From a virus, in UHGV virus genome UHGV-1372840: a stretch of 48,653 nt of DNA; one strand, 5' to 3'. This document shows, piece after piece, positions 3,587 through 46,559 of this stretch. Under the pieces are notes generated by a model. It was not told the origin of the DNA. It made no database searches and worked only from the letters and a program-made list of their open reading frames with translations. A program made the position numbers and the translations under genes. Within the stretch, counting starts at the first letter, position 1; each line of letters starts with the position of its first letter.

Positions 3587-3784
3587 ATGAACATCACGTG
3601 GTTTAGCCGTAAATTTACATATAATTGGTTCATGTGCCTGCTGGGGGTATTGTGTGCTAAATGGTTCGGAATGGATGATGCCCTATGGTGGACATTGATT
3701 CCCGCATTGTCTTTCGGTTTATCGAGAGATACCGAGTATTCACATGGATATTGGTTCTTAGAAAATAAGGAGAGCAACAAATGA
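3587..3784 (+). CDS. Small membrane protein
   Basis: 65 aa with hydrophobic segment FMCLLGVLCAKWF...WWTLIPALSFGL. Start overlaps the upstream stop (translationally coupled). Confidence 0.4.
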   Translation: MNITWFSRKFTYNWFMCLLGVLCAKWFGMDDALWWTLIPALSFGLSRDTEYSHGYWFLENKESNK

Positions 3785-3912
3785 ACACACCATACGCATA
3801 CGAAGTGACAACCAACCGTGGTACGACATATCTGGTCCGCGCGGGCAGTGTGGCGCATAACAACGCTGTCATGTTCGGGTATCAACTGAAACCACTGTAT
3901 GAGGGTGAGTAA
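3781..3912 (+). CDS. Small hypothetical protein (43 aa)
   Basis: ATGA overlap with the upstream stop; in-frame ORF MNTPYAYEVTTNRGTTYLVRAGSVAHNNAVMFGYQLKPLYEGE. Below the track cutoff. Confidence 0.3.
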   Translation: MNTPYAYEVTTNRGTTYLVRAGSVAHNNAVMFGYQLKPLYEGE

Positions 3913-3914
3913 TT

Positions 3915-4085
3915 ATGATTTGGACAGTTGGTCGTTATCCTTCCGGTAACTGGGATTCCGGCGGTTTACCTTCCGAATACATGGGAGGCTGGACATGTAG
4001 GGTAGAAGCCAAAGACAGAATTGAGGCTTTAAAGAAAGGTAAAGCAAAATATTACCGTGAGCAAAAGAAGGCTATAAAACCATGA
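3915..4085 (+). CDS. Small hypothetical protein (56 aa)
   Basis: ATG 3915 two nt after the previous stop; ends with an ATGA overlap onto the next gene. Confidence 0.3.
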   Translation: MIWTVGRYPSGNWDSGGLPSEYMGGWTCRVEAKDRIEALKKGKAKYYREQKKAIKP

Positions 4086-8598: not shown

Positions 8599-10047
8599 TT
8601 ATAAAATCTCCGAAACGGTTGCTTTGCCATTGTGGAGCATTTGACTAATTGCATCACACATTGGGTCAATCTGGTCATCGTGAGCGTGTGTGTCATCAGC
8701 GGTGAACGCTTCGCACTCCGTAACGAAGTCATGAACCCACGGGGCATCTTCGGGTATCTTAACATATCCTGACTCAATGTAACCCTGTACGTCCATCACA
8801 CGGGTTAATTTATTTGCTGCCGGCCCACGTGGTATCTCTCGTACGGGTATCACGGGTTTAATTTTGCGACGAATCTTCTGAATAAGTTCCGTACCGGATG
8901 ATTTATCTTCGACAGCCATGTAACGCAAACGACCGTTTTTATCGTTGCGATGTTTGTTCCAGAAGTCAGGGATTTTTACCTCGAGCTCATACGCTTCGAA
9001 CTTATCGCGCATGATGTCGAGGAGATACAGATATCCATCCTCGCCCAGGCCCCACAGTTCGGCAACCTGATAGTCATTATGCTCTTTGGCTTTCTGTGCC
9101 GTATCGATGAACACTGCTTTGTATTTCAGCTTCGGCACAACGGTATAACGTCCGAACCACGACCCCTTCAGAATGCCACCACCGAGCGGTGAGGGGCGCT
9201 GTTGCATCTGACCGGAGAACATGTATGAGTTTTTCTTCTGCATCGCCTTGAGGGCTTCCAGAGAGTGTTTCTGGGGCCATAATGCGCGCTCTGTCGGTAA
9301 ACCTTCATCGACAATGGCGGGAAGCACCAGGTGACGGAAATTATATTCACCGTCTTTCAACAGGGTGCCGCAGAAATCTTCCTCGTGAAGACGCTGCATG
9401 ATGACGATACAAGGCGTCTTCGTGGAGTTAAAACGCGATTTAATGGTTTCATCCCATCGACGGTTAACACCGTTACGTTTTGGGTCAGAATACGCGTCAT
9501 CCGGTTTTAACGGGTCATCGATGATAATCGCACCACCAAAGCCGTTACCGTTCTCAAAGTCGTCGAGTTTACCAGCACCGAAACCGGTGATAGGTCCGCC
9601 CGCCGCCGTCGCATAGAACACGCCGCCCTGGTCAGTACCCCACGCTTTCTTCGAATCCTTGTTCGCCTTGATGGTCACGTGGGGCCACAGTTTCTGAAAC
9701 TCTTCGGACTTCAAAACTGATTTGATGGATTCGGAGTTATCCAGTGCGAGAATATCAGCGTAGGACAGATGAATGAATTCACACTTGGGATTTTTAACGT
9801 AGCACCATGCGGAAAATAATTTAACAGCCAGTTCGGTTTTTGAATAACGTGGCGGCATGTTGATTATTAAATGAGTGGTGCGACCGTAAAATACATCCAT
9901 CAACGCATCACAAATTACATGATGATGGTCACTGAATACAAATTTAGTCCCTTTTAAAACTTTGAAGAAGAAGCGAGCAAATAAAGTAAAATCTTCCTCA
10001 AGTGCGAGGCGCAGTAATTTTAATTCTTTTGGGGAATTAAAATTCAT
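8599..10047 (-). CDS. Terminase large subunit
   Basis: 482 aa after the small subunit gene. N-terminal ATPase region and C-terminal nuclease-like region (FIDTAQ, MAVEDKSSG acidic motifs). Confidence 0.75.
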   Translation of the reverse strand: MNFNSPKELKLLRLALEEDFTLFARFFFKVLKGTKFVFSDHHHVICDALMDVFYGRTTHLIINMPPRYSKTELAVKLFSAWCYVKNPKCEFIHLSYADILALDNSESIKSVLKSEEFQKLWPHVTIKANKDSKKAWGTDQGGVFYATAAGGPITGFGAGKLDDFENGNGFGGAIIIDDPLKPDDAYSDPKRNGVNRRWDETIKSRFNSTKTPCIVIMQRLHEEDFCGTLLKDGEYNFRHLVLPAIVDEGLPTERALWPQKHSLEALKAMQKKNSYMFSGQMQQRPSPLGGGILKGSWFGRYTVVPKLKYKAVFIDTAQKAKEHNDYQVAELWGLGEDGYLYLLDIMRDKFEAYELEVKIPDFWNKHRNDKNGRLRYMAVEDKSSGTELIQKIRRKIKPVIPVREIPRGPAANKLTRVMDVQGYIESGYVKIPEDAPWVHDFVTECEAFTADDTHAHDDQIDPMCDAISQMLHNGKATVSEIL

Positions 10048-10492
10048 CGTTGAACGCCTTTTTAAATACTTTCACATCTTCGGCGGTGATGTTGATATTT
10101 GTATTCACATTATCCAGACCACCGGACAACTGAACCAGTTGCTTATCCAGTCCCATTAATTTTGCTTTACCGAGCACTGCCGCCACAGCTGCGGATGATT
10201 GCGGCGTCTCGGCAGACAGCGCAACGTTTTTAATTTCTTCCAGTTCCGCAACGAGTGAATCGACTGTCACATTGTGGCGTTTGGTGTGAGTTTCACGTAA
10301 TTGAGCAATTCTTACCCTCACGTTATCCCGGTCTAACATGTTCGATGCTTTAACAGCAATAGTATTCGCACCCATGTTCCCGGCGTTGTACGAGCGGCGG
10401 TATGACTCAGATGCGTTACCCGTCTCCACGTAGGCGCGGCAGAATGCTTCCTGCTGCTCTGTTACGCCGAATTCGTTGTACGGTCTTGCCAT
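10037..10492 (-). CDS. Terminase small subunit
   Basis: 151 aa. N-terminal TEQQEAFCRAYVETGNASESYRRSY matches the Terminase_2 DNA-binding domain signature. Confidence 0.7.
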   Translation of the reverse strand: MARPYNEFGVTEQQEAFCRAYVETGNASESYRRSYNAGNMGANTIAVKASNMLDRDNVRVRIAQLRETHTKRHNVTVDSLVAELEEIKNVALSAETPQSSAAVAAVLGKAKLMGLDKQLVQLSGGLDNVNTNINITAEDVKVFKKAFNDEF

Positions 10493-10493
10493 G

Positions 10494-10712
10494 CTATTTA
10501 CCTTTTCTCAAGTGTTGTTTGACATACGTACTTTTCATGATTTGAGCGAGATGACCGCCGTTACAGAACCTGTCCTGATAGACAATTTGCATTGCCCGAT
10601 ATGGTTCCACGCCGGATAAAACTAAGTTGCAAAATTCTACTCGGTGACTGAACGGTCTGTGCTTCGTCACTTTATCCGGCTTGCCGGTATGTAGATTAGT
10701 TTTCATGGTCAC
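10494..10712 (-). CDS. Hypothetical protein, first gene of the head operon
   Basis: 72 aa ORF coupled to the small terminase gene. Confidence 0.35.
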   Translation of the reverse strand: MTMKTNLHTGKPDKVTKHRPFSHRVEFCNLVLSGVEPYRAMQIVYQDRFCNGGHLAQIMKSTYVKQHLRKGK

Positions 10713-10801
10713 TCACCCGATTGTCTCCAATGCCACGATTTTACCATGACTGTATCGTCATTGCCACATACCCTGATGAAAGTGGTTCAGGGTATTTTTT
10801 C

Positions 10802-11002
10802 GGGTATGAAAAACTCCTTAGTTTTCTGTTACTTACTACTTATTACCCTTATACCCTTATAAAATAGTAATTAATATAGTAGTAAGATAGTAAAAGAATG
10901 TATATATACAGCATACAAACAGTAATAAGAGGAAAGGGAGAATATAGCAAGAATGTACGGGGTTTTCGGTTATGCGCGTAAGCTGCTGATTGTGAAAGTA
11001 AA
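10802..11002. repeat. Copy A of a roughly 200 bp direct repeat (second copy at 45758-45960)
   Basis: About 90% identical to 45758-45960, same orientation. AT-rich core with three TAGTAA repeats and a tandem TACCCTTAT pair. Lies in the divergent intergenic region upstream of the leftward head operon. Confidence 0.85.
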
Positions 11003-11072
11003 TTACCTACCCTGATGATTTACCATTTTCGGGTAAAATGAGGTATTGACACGGTAAACAACCCATGTAACA

Positions 11073-11699
11073 ATGTATAAATCAAATATACAGTATGTAG
11101 GATTTATACAAATGTACCACCTTAGAGAAAATTGCGATTGTAAAACGTTCCATGAAGACACGGGTCTTTGTACACTTTGTGCCCGATACAATCATGAGGA
11201 CTTCGTGAGACATTTCAAAAACAGAACCAATTCTGACGATGAACATGAGCAATGGTTACTCGACCAGTTGTGGAACAACCCGAATAATGGTCTCAGAATC
11301 GGCACCAAACGCATGTCGAAATGTGGTCACCCTGGCGTCTATCGCGGTAGTAAATGTGCGATATGCTCCAAGATTAGTAAAGACGCTAAAGCCTCTCAGT
11401 CGCTTCAAAAAAGCACTAACCATGTAGACACAATGCGTTTCACTCTTGAACAATTAAACGCAACTATTGAGGAAATGAAGCGCCAACGGAAAACACTGGA
11501 ACAGGCCATACAGTTGGCTGAGATGGGATTGAATATCGGCAACATCACTTTAACCACTGTCAAGATGAAAACACCACGTCAAATAGCTATTGAGGCGGGT
11601 CAGAAGTGGTACATGCCTTACGAACCCTGTAAAAACTGCAATACAATATCTGAACGTTATGTAGCAAATGGTCGCTGCCGCAATTGTGGAGGTAAATAA
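11073..11699 (+). CDS. Cys-rich zinc-ribbon protein with coiled-coil segment
   Basis: Three CxxC-type clusters (CDCK...CTLC, CGHP...CAIC, CKNC...CRNC) and a central heptad-rich stretch. Start uncertain (11073 or the internal M). Confidence 0.45.
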   Translation: MYKSNIQYVGFIQMYHLRENCDCKTFHEDTGLCTLCARYNHEDFVRHFKNRTNSDDEHEQWLLDQLWNNPNNGLRIGTKRMSKCGHPGVYRGSKCAICSKISKDAKASQSLQKSTNHVDTMRFTLEQLNATIEEMKRQRKTLEQAIQLAEMGLNIGNITLTTVKMKTPRQIAIEAGQKWYMPYEPCKNCNTISERYVANGRCRNCGGK

Positions 11700-13866: not shown

Positions 13867-13895
13867 CAAAAAAAAAGCCCCGAAGGGCTTATTTA
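13867..13895. terminator. Rho-independent terminator after the primase-helicase gene
   Basis: A9-GCCC-cgaa-GGGC-TTATTT; reads as stem plus T9 on the - strand. Confidence 0.7.
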
Positions 13896-16177
13896 GTTTC
13901 CGCAAAGGCAATAGCACTCGTATCACCCTGTGCCGCCGCGTAATGGCGCGCCACGTCTGCTGCATTTGTGAGGTTAGCGTGAATGTGTCCAATCTTGATG
14001 TACAACCGTGGCTTACCACCGTCAATCATTATCACGTTATTCACGCGTCCATCCTTGAGCGCCGGGTGCCAGTCGTAACCTAGTTGACGCATCATGTCAC
14101 GACGTTTACCCACCGGTACAGCGCGGTCGGCACGCATCTGGCGCAACAGGTTGTCCAGTGCCTTACTGCTCACCCAACCACCCGCAAAGCCCTGACGACC
14201 CTCATCAATCGCTTCCATAATTTCCTGCTCAACACTGCCGAGTGATGCTGTCACAGCCTCGTGAGTACTGCTTGTTTCCGGAGCGCGCTGGCAATGTGTT
14301 GCCGGGTTAAATTGTGCGGGAATATCATAGTTCTCCAGATAATGCGTCACTGCTGCAAATCCGCCGCCACGTTTGAGCCAGTCGTACAGGTTGGGGAAGT
14401 AGTCGCCACCCATGCCATCACGCACAATGTCGATATGCTCCTGCTGCGCGGTGTAAAAGATGGCAAAGCGACGGTCATTAGCGGTCTTGCGCACAGCGTT
14501 CTTGTGGTTACTGTTGAACATGAAGTTGGCACACAGTCTGTGCATTACCTGGTCCTGCTGCATCGCACGTTTAGCGAGGTACTCACCGGTAATCATCGGC
14601 TTGAGTATTTCAATCAGCTCTAGTTTCTGCTCCGGAACGTAAATATCCTCCACGCCGATGAATATTTTATCGAATAACCATGCGTTGAACTTCTCACCAA
14701 TTTCCTGCGCTGGCGGCATGTGACTGTAACGTGAACCGACCGCTTCCATTACGCACAGTGTGAACAGTGTTTTACCGTTACCTTCGACGCCCTGCAGTAA
14801 TGGTGCCCATTTAAATTTAGTCCCCTTGTACTGTACACACGCCGCCATGTAGGACAACAGAATCTCACGGTCGCGCTCAACGGGTAACAGTTTGGCCAGA
14901 TGAGTGAGGAAAGGTGTCACATCACCCCGTGCGCTCGCCACCGTCACAGGTACGTATGCGTTGACATGACGCAGACCGTCTTCTTCGATAATGGCACCCT
15001 GCGGCAGGTCCGGACGGAATGTCGAGCGGTCAACCTTCGGGAACATGATGCACTGATTCTCGGTGAAGGCTTCAAAAGCCTTTTTGGTGGTCTTTTCGTT
15101 ACCGTCATCCAGTGCAAACACATAACCACCGTACATTGCATTAAACTGCTCGGACTTCAGCATTTGACCGTTAGGTGTGAGAATCCGGTGGCTGTCTGCC
15201 ACGTATACGCAGCCTTTGAAGTGGTCAACAAGCTGTGAGCCTCCAATGAATTGATACCCGCTTCGGATAACCGGTGCACCCGTCTCGACAACCTGCGCGG
15301 GAGTCACCAGTTCAATCGGTGCGCCGACGCTGTAATAAGTTGTAAGAAGTCCGGCGGCGTTGAGGATGGTGCGCTCCAGATACGACTTATTGGTGAACCA
15401 TTTATCTCTTTTAAGACCACTCTGTAGCATCAGCGATTTAGTTCTTTCGCAGTTCCCACCTGTCCACCATAGAAGCCGGGTGGCGAGAGATGAGTCGAGC
15501 GATGAACGGTCGTCGTCTTCCGATACCACACCATTCCACAGGTCTTTAAAAGTGGCCTTGCCGCCAAAAACAACCGAAACCCCCTCCTTAGCCGCACACG
15601 CTTTTTCGATGAGTTTCGCATCATCCTCAATCGGGTTACTACCCACCTGTGGCGAGTCTGTCCATTTCACCGACACCGTGGATTCTTCTTTCGGAAAATA
15701 GCGTGCAATTACTGTATTTAGCGCCCCCGTGGCATCGTGTTCCCATAACCCTTGCGCACTTGAACCAGTTAAGGCGACGAATCTTTCGGTGTGGTATAAC
15801 TCAATCCCCATCTGAACGTTTTTACAGGCGTGCTCAGGGATGGAAGAATATCGTCCAATGATGTGTAAACCGGTGCCACTCTGTGAAATTTCAACATAGC
15901 ACCCGGCGAAAGTCTGACACAGTTCCACGGCCAACGGAGACCATGTTCCGTCAATTAGACAATGGTCGATATCGATGAAGAAATATGGGTCTGTATCGGT
16001 GAACACAAATCCAACTCCGTCGGCACCCCGTGTGAGTGCGTCACCATACGTCAACCAGTCATTCGGGTTGGTTGTGGAACCGTGGGGCCGCTTGGTTGTT
16101 TTGTCACCCACTTTAACGAGTGAGTAAGGAATGTACTGTTTTCTCTCTGTAATCATCATTTCAGTAACCTCATGCAC
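13889..16177 (-). CDS. Primase-polymerase / D5-family helicase
   Basis: N-terminal bifunctional primase-polymerase-like region (FVFTDTDPYFFIDIDHC). C-terminal Walker A GVEGNGKT and P4/D5-type helicase region. Start may be 16159 (MMITER). Confidence 0.7.
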   Translation of the reverse strand: MHEVTEMMITERKQYIPYSLVKVGDKTTKRPHGSTTNPNDWLTYGDALTRGADGVGFVFTDTDPYFFIDIDHCLIDGTWSPLAVELCQTFAGCYVEISQSGTGLHIIGRYSSIPEHACKNVQMGIELYHTERFVALTGSSAQGLWEHDATGALNTVIARYFPKEESTVSVKWTDSPQVGSNPIEDDAKLIEKACAAKEGVSVVFGGKATFKDLWNGVVSEDDDRSSLDSSLATRLLWWTGGNCERTKSLMLQSGLKRDKWFTNKSYLERTILNAAGLLTTYYSVGAPIELVTPAQVVETGAPVIRSGYQFIGGSQLVDHFKGCVYVADSHRILTPNGQMLKSEQFNAMYGGYVFALDDGNEKTTKKAFEAFTENQCIMFPKVDRSTFRPDLPQGAIIEEDGLRHVNAYVPVTVASARGDVTPFLTHLAKLLPVERDREILLSYMAACVQYKGTKFKWAPLLQGVEGNGKTLFTLCVMEAVGSRYSHMPPAQEIGEKFNAWLFDKIFIGVEDIYVPEQKLELIEILKPMITGEYLAKRAMQQDQVMHRLCANFMFNSNHKNAVRKTANDRRFAIFYTAQQEHIDIVRDGMGGDYFPNLYDWLKRGGGFAAVTHYLENYDIPAQFNPATHCQRAPETSSTHEAVTASLGSVEQEIMEAIDEGRQGFAGGWVSSKALDNLLRQMRADRAVPVGKRRDMMRQLGYDWHPALKDGRVNNVIMIDGGKPRLYIKIGHIHANLTNAADVARHYAAAQGDTSAIAFAETK

Positions 16178-16252: not shown

Positions 16253-16570
16253 TTAAAGCAGGGTTGTTAACGCGCGGGTGCGTAACTCCAGTGGTGCAGA
16301 GTTGGCGATAGTGTCACCCAGCGCGATACCTTGTCCGATTAATTCGAGGTTTTCTTCTTCCACTGCTCGTTGCATCACTGCTTCACGAAGTGCGGACATC
16401 CTGACCCAGTGATGGTTAACGCTTCCCATCGCCACGCCAGCCTCGGCCGCAACACCATCGCGGGTAAGAGTACCAAAGCCGTCGCGCTGCGCCATCGTGT
16501 AAGCTACTTCCAGAATATGTTCTTTGCTCATAATTTCGGTTCCATTGGGTAATTTATTGCAGTATGACAC
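16253..16570 (-). CDS. TetR-like HTH DNA-binding protein (short)
   Basis: ILEVAYTMAQRDGFGTLTRDGVAAEAGVAMGSVNHHW follows the TetR_N pattern (ILdaA..Gf..tt...IA..aGvs.g.lyhhF). Only 105 aa. Confidence 0.45.
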   Translation of the reverse strand: MSYCNKLPNGTEIMSKEHILEVAYTMAQRDGFGTLTRDGVAAEAGVAMGSVNHHWVRMSALREAVMQRAVEEENLELIGQGIALGDTIANSAPLELRTRALTTLL

Positions 16571-39844: not shown

Positions 39845-39968
39845 TTTATTCCCCTCAGTTAGATATCATCAATTCTATCGTTAATCGTGACCATAAACAA
39901 ATCGATTTGAACGGGTCGCGATTTTCATCGAAAGTACACTCACACGAACAAGAGAGGAGATACAAAAT

Positions 39969-40685
39969 ATGAATGACTTAATGACTGTCGACGATGTACA
40001 AACGATGTCCAGCCGTGAGATTGCGGAATTGACAGGGAAGAACCACGCGGATGTGTGTCGGGATGTTCGCGTGATGCTAGCGGGTCTGTATGGTGGTCAG
40101 GCTTCCGAATACGTGCGTAAAGCAAATCTGCTTCACATTACAAATCAAGGGGTTAATTGTGAGAGGTACGACAACCAGAACCCAAACGCTTGGGAGTATC
40201 TATTAGACAGGCGACATACGGAAATTTTAGTCACCGGGTACGACGTGAAGCGAAGAGCTGCTGTAATCGACAGGTGGTTCGAGCTAGAAAGTAATAAAAG
40301 TAAACTATCGTTACCACAAAACTATATTCAAGCACTTGAAGCGCTGCTGGAAAGCGAGAAAGAGAAAGAACGTCTCGCACTAGAGAACAAGGAGATGACA
40401 CCAAAAGCAGACGTCTACGACCGGATTGTAGAACGCAATGGTCTCTATAACGCCACTCAGATCGCCCAGAAGTTCGGACAATCAGCGATATGGCTAAACA
40501 AACAACTAGCCTCGATGGACGTCTACAATCGCTCCGTGAAGCGTGGACGTGTATTTCAGCAATGGTTCATCGATAGAGGGTACGGGATAATGCGGGAGAC
40601 AGAGAATGGGTTCTCGCAACCCATGTTCTATGCTGAAGGTGAAATGTGGATCGTTAGAAAATTATCCGAAGAAGGTTTGATTTAA
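39969..40685 (+). CDS. Rha/KilAC antirepressor-like protein, copy 1
   Basis: N-terminal MSSREIAELTGKNHADVCRDVR is the Phage_pRha signature; C-terminal KilAC/ANT-type domain. Confidence 0.65.
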   Translation: MNDLMTVDDVQTMSSREIAELTGKNHADVCRDVRVMLAGLYGGQASEYVRKANLLHITNQGVNCERYDNQNPNAWEYLLDRRHTEILVTGYDVKRRAAVIDRWFELESNKSKLSLPQNYIQALEALLESEKEKERLALENKEMTPKADVYDRIVERNGLYNATQIAQKFGQSAIWLNKQLASMDVYNRSVKRGRVFQQWFIDRGYGIMRETENGFSQPMFYAEGEMWIVRKLSEEGLI

Positions 40686-40960: not shown

Positions 40961-41076
40961 CTAAGAGGTCAATTGTGATCAATCACATCGTTAATCGTGA
41001 TCATGAATAAATCGATTCGAACGGGTCGTGATTTTTATCGAAACTACACTCACACGAACAAGAGGGGAGAACAGAG

Positions 41077-41793
41077 ATGAACGATTTAGTAAACACAAAA
41101 TCGGAACTAACCATGTCTAGCCGCGAGATTGCGACGCTAGTTGAGAAGCGTCACGACAATGTTTGCAGAGACATTCGCTCAATGCTCTGCGCTCTACATG
41201 GTGGTCACGATGAAGATTATGTTCGTAACTCAAATTTGAGTTACGTTACGAATCATGGGGTTACGTGCATTCAGTATGATACCACCAACCCAAACGCATG
41301 GGAGTACCGGCTGGATAAAGATAACACCATCTGCCTGGTGTCAGGGTATAACGCTCAATTACGAATGAAGATAATCAAGCGTTGGCAAGAGCTGGAATCA
41401 CGGGTGAATACACCCGCACTACCACAAAACTATATTCAAGCACTTGAAGCGCTGCTGGAAAGCGAGAAAGAGAAAGAACGTCTCGCACTAGAGAACAAGG
41501 AGATGACACCAAAAGCAGACGTCTACGACCGGATTGTAGAACGCAATGGTCTCTATAACGCCACTCAGATCGCCCAGAAGTTCGGACAATCAGCGATATG
41601 GCTAAACAAACAACTAGCCTCGATGGACGTCTACAATCGCTCCGTGAAGCGTGGACGTGTATTTCAGCAATGGTTCATCGATAGAGGGTACGGGATAATG
41701 CGGGAGACAGAGAATGGGTTCTCGCAACCCATGTTCTATGCTGAAGGTGAAATGTGGATCGTTAGAAAATTATCCGAAGAAGGTTTGATTTAG
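41077..41793 (+). CDS. Rha/KilAC antirepressor-like protein, copy 2
   Basis: Same length as copy 1. The C-terminal 120 aa are identical at the nucleotide level; the N-terminal Rha domain has diverged. Confidence 0.65.
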   Translation: MNDLVNTKSELTMSSREIATLVEKRHDNVCRDIRSMLCALHGGHDEDYVRNSNLSYVTNHGVTCIQYDTTNPNAWEYRLDKDNTICLVSGYNAQLRMKIIKRWQELESRVNTPALPQNYIQALEALLESEKEKERLALENKEMTPKADVYDRIVERNGLYNATQIAQKFGQSAIWLNKQLASMDVYNRSVKRGRVFQQWFIDRGYGIMRETENGFSQPMFYAEGEMWIVRKLSEEGLI

Positions 41794-44359: not shown

Positions 44360-45099
44360 AAGATAATCCCCAATCGTTTAAGATTTAAAACACATCGCTC
44401 GTGTCTCCAAATCTTATGCACATACGTAGGATTCATACCGTATTTAGCGGCTATTTCAGAAACAGGAACATGACCTTTAGACGTATAGACGTCGTATATG
44501 ACCTCATCGGAATACTTACTCTTTCGGTCGCCGTTCTCCCAACTTCTGGAAAGTGCATCAGATTTTTTCTTTCTGGTAGCATCGGTGTCTTTTTTACCGG
44601 TGTGTGCAGCTATCTGTCGGTTACGGTATGTTTCATCATTCCATTTTGCCAGCAACCCGTCACTTATTTTACTCCTGACAACGTCATTATCCATTCCCTT
44701 ACGGGTCGCTTCAGATATGGCTAACCTTTCGGATTCATTGTTGAATCTAATTTTCTGTACTTTTGAGTTATGCGCTCTCATTTCATCATTAGGCGTATAG
44801 CCGGGACACCCAGCGCCACCAGTACATATGTTAACCAAAATCCCGCCGTCTGAGATTCTACCGAAAAGTGATATCAGACTTTTCTCAGCATCGAAAGCAT
44901 CCGATTTATTCTCATAAGTCCCAATTATACGGTAGGAGAGACTGAGACCTTTCTCACGATGTTCATCCACTATTTTCTGAACTTCCGGTCTACCACCTCT
45001 CTTTCCAGAAAAATGCTGTTGGGGCCTATCTTCCCTACCCGCCCCAACATAAAACGGAATCCCATCGTGGTTCATTAGCACGTATGTTACATATTTCAT
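44356..45099 (-). CDS. GIY-YIG homing endonuclease with NUMOD-like C-terminal repeats
   Basis: YVTYVLMNHDGIPFYVGAG...R...E core; repeated K-S-D-x-L-x-x-x-W-E NUMOD3-like motifs; C-terminal HTH. Confidence 0.65.
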   Translation of the reverse strand: MKYVTYVLMNHDGIPFYVGAGREDRPQQHFSGKRGGRPEVQKIVDEHREKGLSLSYRIIGTYENKSDAFDAEKSLISLFGRISDGGILVNICTGGAGCPGYTPNDEMRAHNSKVQKIRFNNESERLAISEATRKGMDNDVVRSKISDGLLAKWNDETYRNRQIAAHTGKKDTDATRKKKSDALSRSWENGDRKSKYSDEVIYDVYTSKGHVPVSEIAAKYGMNPTYVHKIWRHERCVLNLKRLGIIL

Positions 45100-45596
45100 A
45101 ATCCACCGTCCGGCTTTTCACTTGTCACCTTGTATGTTATGGATTGTAACAAAGAACCTGTATCAATTAAAGGATTGTCCGAACCTTTCTGTTCGATTGT
45201 GTAATCGCTGTTCGGTGGCGTGCGAAGGTCAGTCATGTACTGCTGCACCGCACCGGCTGCGAATGCGCCCACTTGTTCAAGCACATGGTCAAGCGGTAAA
45301 TCATTAGCCACGCCGTGAGCGATGGTGTCCACGATGTCCTGCTTACCGCTCTGTACACCGGGTATCAGCCAGGGGCGCGGTGGAATAGGTGCGGGATTAC
45401 CGTATAGCTTGTTATTCGGGTTACCGTAATTTAGCAATGCGCCAAGCTGTGCGTTAGTGATTCCCGAGTCAGGATGTTCACCCGCGTCCGAATGGATTCC
45501 GACAGTCACAGTCTTCTGACTGGCTTTAGCGTATTGCTCCAGTTTCGAACGTATTGCCTGTTTGGCTTGCCGCAGCGCTTTGATGTTGACCGACAT
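45096..45596 (-). CDS. Virion morphogenesis / head completion protein
   Basis: 166 aa; first gene of the tail/neck operon; GAGGAGGG RBS. Confidence 0.4.
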   Translation of the reverse strand: MSVNIKALRQAKQAIRSKLEQYAKASQKTVTVGIHSDAGEHPDSGITNAQLGALLNYGNPNNKLYGNPAPIPPRPWLIPGVQSGKQDIVDTIAHGVANDLPLDHVLEQVGAFAAGAVQQYMTDLRTPPNSDYTIEQKGSDNPLIDTGSLLQSITYKVTSEKPDGGL

Positions 45597-45757
45597 CGCG
45601 TACCCTCCTCACGTTTGTCAAGACATTATCACACAACGCCACAATAAAGCCACAGAATGCGGGTTTCGGAGTAAAAGCAGTACGATTCACTACCTTTTCG
45701 TTCGGAAGCCAGTGTTTTATGTCAATACCCTTAATACCCCCATCCATAATCCTCTGT

Positions 45758-45960
45758 GGGGTATGAAAAACTCCTTAGTTTTCATTACTATATATTACTA
45801 TACCCCTATACCCCTATAAAATAGTAATTAATATAGTAGTAAGATAGTAAAAGAATGTATATATACAGCATACAAACAGTAATAAAAGAGAAGGGAGAAT
45901 ATAGCAAGAATGTACGGGGTTTTCGGTTATGCGCGTAAGCTGCTGATTGTGAAAGTAAAA
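45758..45960. repeat. Copy B of the roughly 200 bp direct repeat
   Basis: See copy A; upstream of the leftward tail operon. Confidence 0.85.
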
Positions 45961-46038
45961 TTCATACCCCGTGGTTGGGGTTGGATGAGGGTATTTTCGG
46001 GTAATCGTTCATTTTTTTGTACAGAATAAAATTACAGT

Positions 46039-46168
46039 AATTATACGGTAGTACACTATAATTATATTGTACTACAAAGTTGTTCACTTTTTGATCGGAA
46101 TGAAATTATACGGTAGTACACTATAATTATATTGTACTACAAAGTTGTTCACTTTTTGATCGGAATGA
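46039..46168. repeat. Tandem 2 x 65 bp direct repeat, each with an internal palindrome GTAGTACA-N13-GTACTAC
   Basis: Exact duplication of ATTATACGGTAGTACACTATAATTATATTGTACTACAAAGTTGTTCACTTTTTGATCGGAATGAA. Confidence 0.85.
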
Positions 46169-46259: not shown

Positions 46260-46559
46260 ATGGGAAGCCTTGTTGAAGATATCCTGCGTCATGTCCCCAC
46301 GAAACAATGGCGTAAGAAGTGTGACAGGATTGCGTCGCGTGAGTTACATCTCGCACGAGTTCCAGGGATTCATCACAGGTATGGTAAGTGGGAGGCAGTG
46401 GTCTTCTACAGGAATGTCACGCTGACGATCGGTTGTTTCAATACTCCACATCGCGCGTTGTTGGCAAGAAAACTGTGGTACTTCTGGCGTGAGCGCGGAT
46501 TCACTCCGCAGGAGATACCGAAAGGTCCAAAACGCGAACCATATTCGAGGTCACGATGA
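46260..46559 (+). CDS. Small AP2-like DNA-binding protein
   Basis: GIHHRYGKWEAVVFYRNVTLTIGCFNTPHRALLARKLWYF resembles an AP2 fold (YrGV..GKW.A.i.....lG.F.t.e.A). Confidence 0.4.
   Translation: MGSLVEDILRHVPTKQWRKKCDRIASRELHLARVPGIHHRYGKWEAVVFYRNVTLTIGCFNTPHRALLARKLWYFWRERGFTPQEIPKGPKREPYSRSR

Follow-up and report, generated by a model that had tools for sequence, protein, structure and literature searches.

A duplicated array of GGGTA sites upstream of the packaging and tail operons of a Jedunavirus as a putative platform for late gene activation

The genome analysed here contains two near-identical direct repeats, 35 kb apart, which form the core of two longer arrays of GGGTA/TACCC sites, one upstream of the packaging operon and the other upstream of the neck and tail operon. 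The whole stretch of DNA (48,653 nt, referred to here as the window) is from a Jedunavirus most closely related to Klebsiella phage pKp383, to which it is 98% identical over the region. The anatomy of the element, its conservation, its synteny and the promoter-like sequences associated with it are established here. The reading that we favour, with a probability of about 0.5, is that the repeat is the core of a duplicated cis-regulatory platform for a phage activator and has been kept uniform through gene conversion. We found no publication that describes the repeat in the literature on Jedunavirus, MMNM, KpV79, HHU1, IME346, dwarf myoviruses and related phages.

Repeat finding, alignment and BLAST agree on two direct repeats with a constant offset of 34,957 nt, the right-hand ends of which (11012 and 45969) lie about 10 nt past the limits given in the original prediction.

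10802-11012, strand not assigned: head-side copy of the direct repeat, core of the head-side module
45759-45969, strand not assigned: tail-side copy of the direct repeat

Each copy begins with a block of 25 nt that is 100% identical between the two (10802-10826 against 45759-45783), separated by a divergent patch of 17 nt from a segment of 169 nt with 95% identity (10844-11012 against 45801-45969). BLAST of the two copies gave a concordant alignment of 214 nt at 92%. The head copy contains the motifs that had been predicted, namely three TAGTAA sequences (at 10865, 10880 and 10888) and an overlapping tandem pair of TACCCTTAT (10844-10860). A chance origin of the repeat is excluded, as the same arrangement of two copies is found in 71 phage records. 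No tRNA or tmRNA was found.

Both copies are in divergent intergenic regions and have the same orientation. The head copy is flanked on one side by a minus-strand ORF of 70-72 amino acids (start at about 10706-10712), after which come terS, terL and portal on the same strand, and on the other by the plus-strand gene at 11073. The tail copy lies between the minus-strand tail-completion gene (start 45596), with tail-completion, sheath and tube genes on the minus strand after the copy, and a plus-strand gene for a protein of 99 amino acids at 46260-46559; in both cases the gene order follows the annotation of pKp383. Since all the late genes concerned are on the minus strand, the element is read here in that direction.

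10494-10712, minus strand: small ORF that opens the packaging operon, with terS (10037-10492) and terL (8599-10047) after it
45096-45596, minus strand: first gene of the neck/tail operon, tail completion/Neck1

The repeat had been described as lying immediately upstream of both leftward late operons. The divergent intergenic placement upstream of operons was borne out for both copies, but the tail copy ends 162 nt from its gene, and there are not two leftward structural transcription units but at least five, of which only two carry the module. No similar elements were found upstream of the remaining late units of the window.

The internal anatomy of the element was derived from alignments of 27, and later 38, distinct copies, read in the late direction. 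There are 7 GGGTA/TACCC sites per 300 bp in the head copy and 8 in the tail copy, while the maximum in 300 Markov-simulated genomes was 5. The module is approximately 270-330 bp in length and can be divided into parts A to F. Part A, next to the rightward promoter, is the inverted pair TACCC(C)-N17-20-(G)GGGT. Part B is a nearly invariant box of 55 nt with AAAACCCCGTAC at its 3' end, and one or two ACCCC sites precede the polypyrimidine run that makes up part C. Part D is an AT-rich spacer that occurs as two main sequence types with insertions and deletions. Part E is the highly conserved sequence ATTACTATTTTATA-GGGGTA-TA-GGGGTA-ATAAGTAGTA ... GAGTTTTT-(G/C)A-TACCCC, and part F consists of a second TACCCC, approximately 12-14 nt, GGGGTA and then TGTGG. 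In most genomes the repeat spans A to F (~300 nt), while in the window it spans B to E and the flanks have diverged. The features of the arrays, located from site positions, cluster statistics, multi-genome alignments and a genome-wide scan, are as follows.

10768-11035, minus strand: full head-side module, bounded by the downstream and upstream inverted pairs and holding 7 GGGTA/TACCC sites
45726-46003, minus strand: full tail-side module with 8 GGGTA/TACCC sites
10844-10860, minus strand: tandem GGGTA pair, the same as the TACCCTTAT pair, with its tail-side equivalent at 45801-45817
10768-10795, minus strand: downstream inverted pair ATACCCTGA-N10-TCAGGGTAT, the 3' arm of which abuts the -35 region
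11008-11035, minus strand: upstream inverted pair TACCC-N18-GGGTA, adjoining the rightward promoter
45654-45758, minus strand: tail-copy-specific segment of ~105 nt between the repeat and the tail promoter

The tandem GGGTA pair, together with the TTTTA on its 5' side, is the best-conserved block across all lineages. The stretch of TATA-like and TAGTAA motifs, which the original prediction had listed in the conserved segments, is the least conserved part, being variable in length and GC-rich in one relative. The best-supported reading is that the functional core is the GGGTA array and not this stretch. Across the 38 distinct copies the downstream geometry is fixed as tandem pair, 50 nt, TACCC, 13 nt, TACCC, 21 nt and GGGTA. 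The distances across the spacer in these copies are 153, 156, 160, 162, 167 and 168 nt, and over this range of 153-168 nt no helical phasing was found between the upstream and downstream clusters of sites. The loops of the inverted pairs range from 3 to approximately 40 nt across relatives, a spread more easily reconciled with independent sites or hairpins than with a single dimeric operator of fixed form. The tail-copy-specific segment is ~70 nt longer than the corresponding stretch in most relatives, carries its own TACCCC...GGGGTA, GGGTA and TTGACA, and is common only to the window, pKp383 and one metagenomic contig. A possible IHF site in the B box (10979-10991) matches the consensus but was rejected, as the 6 matches in the window are not significant against 3.5 expected.

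The strongest and best-conserved sigma70-like matches in the late direction lie directly after part F. A shared late promoter or activator site had been proposed, and while a shared cis-acting element is the reading that fits the comparative data best, the promoter-like elements themselves lie outside 10802-11002. We found nothing to indicate that a phage-specific polymerase or sigma factor is used.

10738-10767, minus strand: predicted promoter of the head operon, GTGGCA-18-TGgTAAAAT, with an extended -10 and a weak -35, outside the repeat
45625-45653, minus strand: predicted promoter of the tail operon, GTGGCT-17-TGtGATAAT, with an extended -10 and a weak -35, outside the repeat
11046-11074, plus strand: rightward sigma70-like promoter of the Cys-rich protein gene, TTGACA-17-AACAAT

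Both predicted late promoters have an extended -10 element (TGgTAAAAT at 10738-10746 and TGtGATAAT at 45625-45633), and the -35 hexamers are poor (GTGGCA 4/6, GTGGAT 2/6). The combination TGTGG-N17-22-TGNKAWAAT is expected 0.01 times per window. The TGTGATAAT/TGTGACAAT of the tail promoter is kept in the other genomes, and the best-conserved match for the tail operon reads GTGGCT/TGGATA-17-TGtGATAAT. The final GGGTA of the head copy ends about 25 nt before the -10 hexamer, which places it at approximately -42 to -38, and the same holds for the tail copy of most relatives. In L085, AAM22, MSW-3 (head copy) and KsaM-C1, where TGgTAT(T/C)AT is the equivalent extended -10, a GGGTA or GGGGT likewise stops 25-27 nt short of the hexamer. 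A poor -35 abutted near -41 by a conserved site is the layout of a class II promoter, and it is found in the Jedunavirus head and tail copies and in these four, but not in the tail copies of the window and of MSW-3; in the window tail copy the final site is not at about -40, as ~105 nt intervene before the tail promoter. The remainder of the genome uses another class of promoter, with a good -35 that lies within a palindromic operator, TTGACG-N4-CGTCA, present in nine perfect copies, so the two array-linked promoters form a separate class. The KpV52 and KpV79 records annotate only predicted AT-rich "promoter" features in the repeat. Sigma70 promoters within the repeat, including those predicted features, were rejected as weak AT-rich matches that are not kept in distant relatives.

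The element was identified by BLAST in 71 phage records, comprising 65 from Klebsiella, 3 from Escherichia, 2 of Pectobacterium PEAT2 and 1 labelled Acinetobacter. In these records, which cover Jedunavirus and Peatvirus, it nearly always occurs twice, once 5' of terS and once 5' of the tail-completion gene, with a spacing between copies of 13.7 and 35 kb. This answers the suggestion that further copies should be sought in related phages: the records with apparent matches in three places (KpV79 and SBP) are linear records whose ends cut one copy, and a third copy is therefore rejected. More distant relatives were located using the gene for the Cys-rich protein beside the head copy as an anchor, giving vB_KsaM-C1, Pantoea AAM22, Edwardsiella MSW-3 and a metagenomic contig. 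In these the nucleotide similarity of the intergenic regions is beyond BLAST alignment, but the architecture is unchanged and an array of 7-11 GGGTA/TACCC sites is kept. The upstream part consists of an inverted TACCCC/GGGGT pair, adjacent (T)ACCC-ACCCC sites, a polypyrimidine run and a spacer, and the downstream part of TTTTA-(N)-GGGTAT-N-GGGTA-AAAGTAGTA, two TACCCC, GGGGT, and GGGTA/GGGGT before TGgTAT(T/C)AT. Nine genomes were scanned in full for GGGTA/ACCCC clusters. In eight, vB_KsaM-C1 and Edwardsiella MSW-3 included, the top clusters are those at the two syntenic places, and in pKp383 these places rank among the top ones.

Within vB_KsaM-C1 and MSW-3 the similarity between head and tail copies is confined to blocks of 30-50 nt. 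The shared blocks of KsaM-C1 are TTTACCCAAAACCCCGATGGTGC, of 30 nt, and a block of 52 nt ending in CTTTTAACGGGGTATCGGGGTATTT, and mark the parts required by both copies. The distant relatives do not keep the B box, the TAGTAA motifs or the AT-rich composition of the spacer, and in the MSW-3 tail copy the spacer is GC-rich. This copy lies between genes on the same strand and abuts the ATG, at an annotated start that is backed by protein alignment, and so has no space for a downstream promoter.

Head and tail copies from the same genome are up to 99% identical in several genomes, compared with a mean of 78% over all copies, which indicates concerted evolution by gene conversion. The suggestion that the repeat mediates intragenomic recombination is thus supported in this form. 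The repeat contains the ends of many metagenomic contigs, of 33-35 kb or 11-15 kb, and several GenBank records open inside or beside it. The repeat therefore breaks assemblies, and such record starts are choices of assembly or annotation. Terminal redundancy of the packaged genome, which the original prediction had named as a finding that would count against a promoter, is refuted: in every relative both copies are internal and syntenic, and IME346 was found to lack fixed genome termini (PMC9007800).

The leading candidate for a protein that binds the arrays, by association, is a Cys-rich protein encoded divergently from the head copy.

11073-11699, plus strand: gene for a Cys-rich protein of 195-208 amino acids with three CxxC pairs and a long helix

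The gene is at the same place in 7 of 7 complete genomes (38-100% identity), and is divergent from terS in every case inspected. The protein is found in 79 phage records, including those of vB_KsaM-C1, Pantoea AAM22, Edwardsiella MSW-3 and PEi21, and in metagenomic contigs down to 30% identity. It is predicted to contain a helix of 55 residues and a coiled-coil (AF2 pLDDT 83), and its C-terminus carries a nearly invariant zinc-ribbon-like motif, SPRQ..KWYMP.EPC..C....ERYVANGRCR.C. Searches for a Pfam, family or fold match to the Cys-rich protein returned none. A second candidate, also by association, is the TetR-type helix-turn-helix protein encoded at 16253-16570, which has a TetR_N domain, is present in all genomes compared and is >90% conserved; this protein could instead serve the TTGACG-N4-CGTCA palindromes. 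The protein encoded at 46260-46559, beside the tail copy, has an AP2 domain that was confirmed by fold and profile. ZCEC13 and SBP keep both arrays but lack this protein, and the gene at this position differs between genomes, so it was dropped as a general partner of the array.

From the arrangement of sites and promoters we infer protein binding, activation and late timing, as follows. Host sigma70 RNA polymerase would use the weak array-linked promoters only with a phage-encoded protein, the Cys-rich coiled-coil protein beside the head copy being the leading candidate, on the GGGTA array, and the last GGGTA site would contact the polymerase in the manner of a class II activator site. The same occupancy of the array could shut the divergent rightward promoters. 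Gene conversion keeps both copies of the module alike. The ~105-nt segment of the window tail copy, the placement of the MSW-3 tail copy and the variable loops of the inverted pairs leave some probability for a role at the RNA level, or for another role at the DNA level.

Part of the repeat may have been conserved for a different reason. The B box reads as a micro-ORF in the direction opposite to the late genes, beginning ATG TAC GGG GTT TTC GGT TAT GCG CGT AAG CTG CTG ATT GTG AAA GTA AAT... on the plus strand.

10953-11015, plus strand: B box and micro-ORF, MYGVFGYARKLLIVKVNYLP followed by a stop, which also holds an ACCCC site
45910-46029, plus strand: tail-side copy of the micro-ORF, 39 amino acids, the first 16 residues identical to the head-side copy

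The B box would then be kept because it codes for a rightward protein of 20-39 amino acids (MYGVFGYARK..IVKVN), and the repeat would in part be a duplicated micro-gene. Of 42 distinct copies, 41 have an intact micro-ORF complete with the ATG. The micro-ORF is preceded by a purine-rich run and is annotated in ZCEC13 as gp02 and gp31. The minimum numbers of substitutions by codon position are 3:4:11 in the 42 distinct copies and 4:4:12 with L083 added (binomial p ~0.013), and 9 of the 12 changes at third positions leave the amino acid (V, A, R, K, P or Y) as it is, while the 51 nt flanking the micro-ORF have ~4 times more changes, spread evenly over the three codon positions. This codon signal is, however, based on approximately 20 changes, and the 3' part of the micro-ORF overlaps ACCCC/GGGGT sites that are conserved as DNA. 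The C-terminus is variable, from 20 to 39 amino acids, and the Shine-Dalgarno spacing of the window type is poor (~12 nt). The micro-ORF is also absent from the PEAT2 head copy, both KsaM-C1 copies, L085, L087, AAM22 and MSW-3, though the array is kept in these. We tentatively regard it as a possible lineage-specific addition that is compatible with any other reading, and not as the reason for the repeat; that it explains the B box is a minority prospect.

It is less likely that the module acts as RNA. In such a case it would be transcribed in the late direction, with TACCCC/GGGGUA hairpins in a long 5' leader or in intercistronic RNA. A factor from the phage or the host would bind these hairpins and thereby control antitermination, the stability of the mRNA or how the first late gene is translated. 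This would suit the MSW-3 tail copy, which runs between same-strand structural genes up to the ATG and in which the last GGGG is the sole Shine-Dalgarno-like sequence, and also the window tail copy, in which a longer segment (~105 nt) before the gene is tolerated. There are also lineage-specific extensions of the stems, TGA/TCA in the window, GAA/TTC in the PEAT type and GTAT/ATAC in AAM22, although these are anecdotal, and several stems have G-T pairs that are allowed only in RNA of the late direction. The distant relatives fold better on the late-direction strand, but this asymmetry can arise from G+T richness. Against this, a search for a conserved late-direction promoter upstream of the module found none (the best match, TTCACA-16-CATAAC, scored 5.6). 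Rfam gave nothing at gathering thresholds and only chance-level matches at E<10, folding energies on both strands were no better than those of shuffled sequences (z +0.67 and -0.79), and the consensus fold of 27 copies was weak. In the downstream inverted pair, two candidate helices reach 77-86% pairing, with covariation that is not above shuffle controls. A structured RNA was rejected on these four results.

A role in replication or packaging has a smaller share of the probability again. The arrays could be the iterons of a two-part origin, similar to ori and crr of the satellite phage P4, on which the primase-polymerase/helicase of the phage would act, or a pac or terminase-loading site beside terS. 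A second origin had also been raised in the original prediction, and is possible but not favoured. Short repeated sites flanking a spacer that is usually AT-rich and variable in length are the classic layout of an origin, and the window encodes a primase-helicase of the D5/NrS-1 type at 13889-16177, according to the Pfam families of a homologue. But the position and orientation of the arrays relative to the same two operons are the same in at least four lineages, which is required by promoter control and not by an origin, and in the MSW-3 tail copy GC-rich sequence has replaced the AT-rich spacer. The minimum of cumulative GC skew, itself weak evidence, is near 20 kb in the divergent region of replication genes and not at the repeats, and inspection by eye found no DnaA box better than 7/9. 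The head copy is always beside terS, and packaging is of the headful type, without fixed ends (PMC9007800). We know of no precedent for a second pac site upstream of tail genes.

Finally, a neutral or selfish repeat, whether a duplicated intergenic fragment, a mobile element or terminal redundancy acting via recombination only, would account for the concerted evolution, by which the copies recombine, and for the assemblies that break at them, but is very improbable given that the array and its geometry are kept across genera despite decayed nucleotide similarity, that there are always exactly two copies at fixed syntenic sites, that target-site duplications and a transposase are absent, and that the copies are internal to genomes with no fixed ends.

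Returning to the duplicated platform for an activator, it may extend to a late-gene switch that is new. As a tentative model, GGGTA arrays and the adjacent Cys-rich coiled-coil protein would together form an enhancer-like, multi-site nucleoprotein complex in Jedunavirus, Peatvirus, Yokohamavirus and the unclassified relatives vB_KsaM-C1 and Pantoea AAM22, turning the packaging and neck/tail operons on and the divergent genes off, and the activator would belong to a family without a recognisable fold. If the Cys-rich protein is the activator, it would define a new phage transcription factor family.

Few groups of Klebsiella phages are isolated for therapy as often as the jedunaviruses, and we know of no information on the timing of their late genes. 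With a conserved element, two candidate regulators and precise predictions of the promoters, this question is directly testable. The element also offers handles for engineering, for example where payloads are to be placed under late control. On a practical level, the repeat splits short-read assemblies into pieces of approximately 35 kb and 14 kb and sets the point at which many GenBank records open.

Among known systems the module would work most like the activator-dependent late promoters of P2 (Ogr), Mu (C) and phi29 (p4). The late promoters of P2, 186 and P4 are activated by the zinc-finger proteins Ogr, B and Delta with the host sigma70 polymerase. The resemblance lies in a shared upstream recognition element at several morphogenetic operons and a poor -35, and in those phages the activator is small and zinc-binding. 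P2, however, uses a single dyad, TGT-N12-ACA near -55, at four promoters, while here there are 7-11 GGGTA sites over ~300 bp, two operons only and an extended -10. The neighbouring Cys-rich protein is three times larger than Ogr or Delta and has a long helix, no Ogr_Delta Pfam match was obtained for the neighbouring proteins even at E<10, and the dyad here is TACCC(C)...(G)GGGTA, which places the system outside the Ogr/Delta group.

In phage Mu the late promoters Plys, PI, PP and Pmom are activated by protein C. There too, weak sigma70 promoters at the start of separate late operons have an activator site in common, which overlaps their -35, but each Mu promoter has a single dyad, without a long repeat, an array of sites or concerted evolution over 200-300 bp. 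The switch of phi29 (p4 with p6, at A2c/A2b and A3) is similar in being a divergent early/late region of ~200-300 bp with several inverted-repeat sites. One regulator activates the late promoter of phi29 from a site abutting the -35 and represses the opposite promoters, and we propose a parallel arrangement here. Phi29 has one such region where there are two here, the sequences and proteins are unrelated, and the binding and bending that are established for phi29 are only inferred here. The ori and crr of P4, iterons bound by the alpha primase-helicase, resemble the arrays in being two separated clusters of short motifs in a small genome with a D5-type primase-helicase. The P4 clusters are defined by their function in replication, whereas the clusters described here keep a set position and orientation relative to two late operons.

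The repeat is a frequent break point in the public assemblies of these phages, yielding contigs of approximately 35 kb and 14 kb, and many records are opened within it or beside it. Such cases were seen in related loci and contigs of our comparison (L009, L012, L014, L025, L036, L041, L073, L076, L079 and L081) and, in GenBank, in KpV79, SBP, HHU1, ZCEC13, LAPP1, MSW-3 and AAM22. Kpn112, at 35,560 bp, is probably a partial genome that results from a break at the repeat. In the stretch nt 1-498 of Edwardsiella phage MSW-3 (L091) the start of terS is annotated at nt 1, while the predicted extended -10 promoter (TGTGGTATTAT, approximately nt 35-45) lies downstream of this start, so that the annotated start has probably been placed too far upstream.

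The tail copy is adjoined by a perfect tandem duplication of 65 bp (46039-46168), in which each unit contains one TATAAT flanked on its two sides by the palindrome GTAGTACA...TGTACTAC; the unit is single in related genomes while the window has two. A published description of MMNM reports an intergenic poly-G length variant at nt 3958 (PMC11633184). This position of MEW1/MMNM is approximately 80 nt away from the MEW1 tail copy (3667-3880), and the variant probably corresponds to the GGGGG run (45737-45741 of the window) of a GGGGGTA site within the tail-copy-specific segment.

The features of the window considered here are as follows.

Perfect TTGACG-N4-CGTCA palindromes: 3122, 4530, 6673, 13842, 17577, 20114, 20171, 22917 and 46196
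TTGACG-N4-CGTCA with one mismatch: 16574 and 35106
Tandem paralogous Rha/KilAC ("anti-repressor Ant") genes: 39969-40685 and 41077-41793
Stand-alone AP2-domain protein of 99 aa, assigned by predicted fold and profile matches to Pfam AP2 proteins: 46260-46559

The palindrome is present in nine perfect copies, and allowing up to two mismatches gives 45 matches in the window against 19 expected. Most copies have a -10-like hexamer approximately 17 nt 3' of TTGACG, and these sites look like an ordinary sigma70 promoter class with one common operator, which could possibly be the target of the TetR-like protein encoded at 16253-16570. In the head late promoter, the spacer contains a degenerate version of the palindrome, ATGACGATACAGTCAT (10746-10761).

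The two Rha/KilAC genes have an identical stretch of 300 nt in common (40312-40611 and 41420-41719), and the regions upstream of them are also alike (39868-39960 and 40978-41070). The AP2-domain protein is found in the window, pKp383, JD001, KpV79 and PEAT2, where it is unannotated, and is missing from ZCEC13 and SBP; an AP2 domain is also present in the HNH endonuclease of SBP.

The Cys-rich family, represented in the window at 11073-11699, consists of proteins of approximately 190 aa with a 55-residue helix and two conserved zinc-ribbon-like motifs. The structural model is confident (pLDDT 83), yet fold comparison returned no match. Homologues occur in 79 phage records, and in Jedunavirus, Peatvirus, Yokohamavirus, Pantoea phage AAM22 and vB_KsaM-C1 the gene and terS invariably point away from each other.
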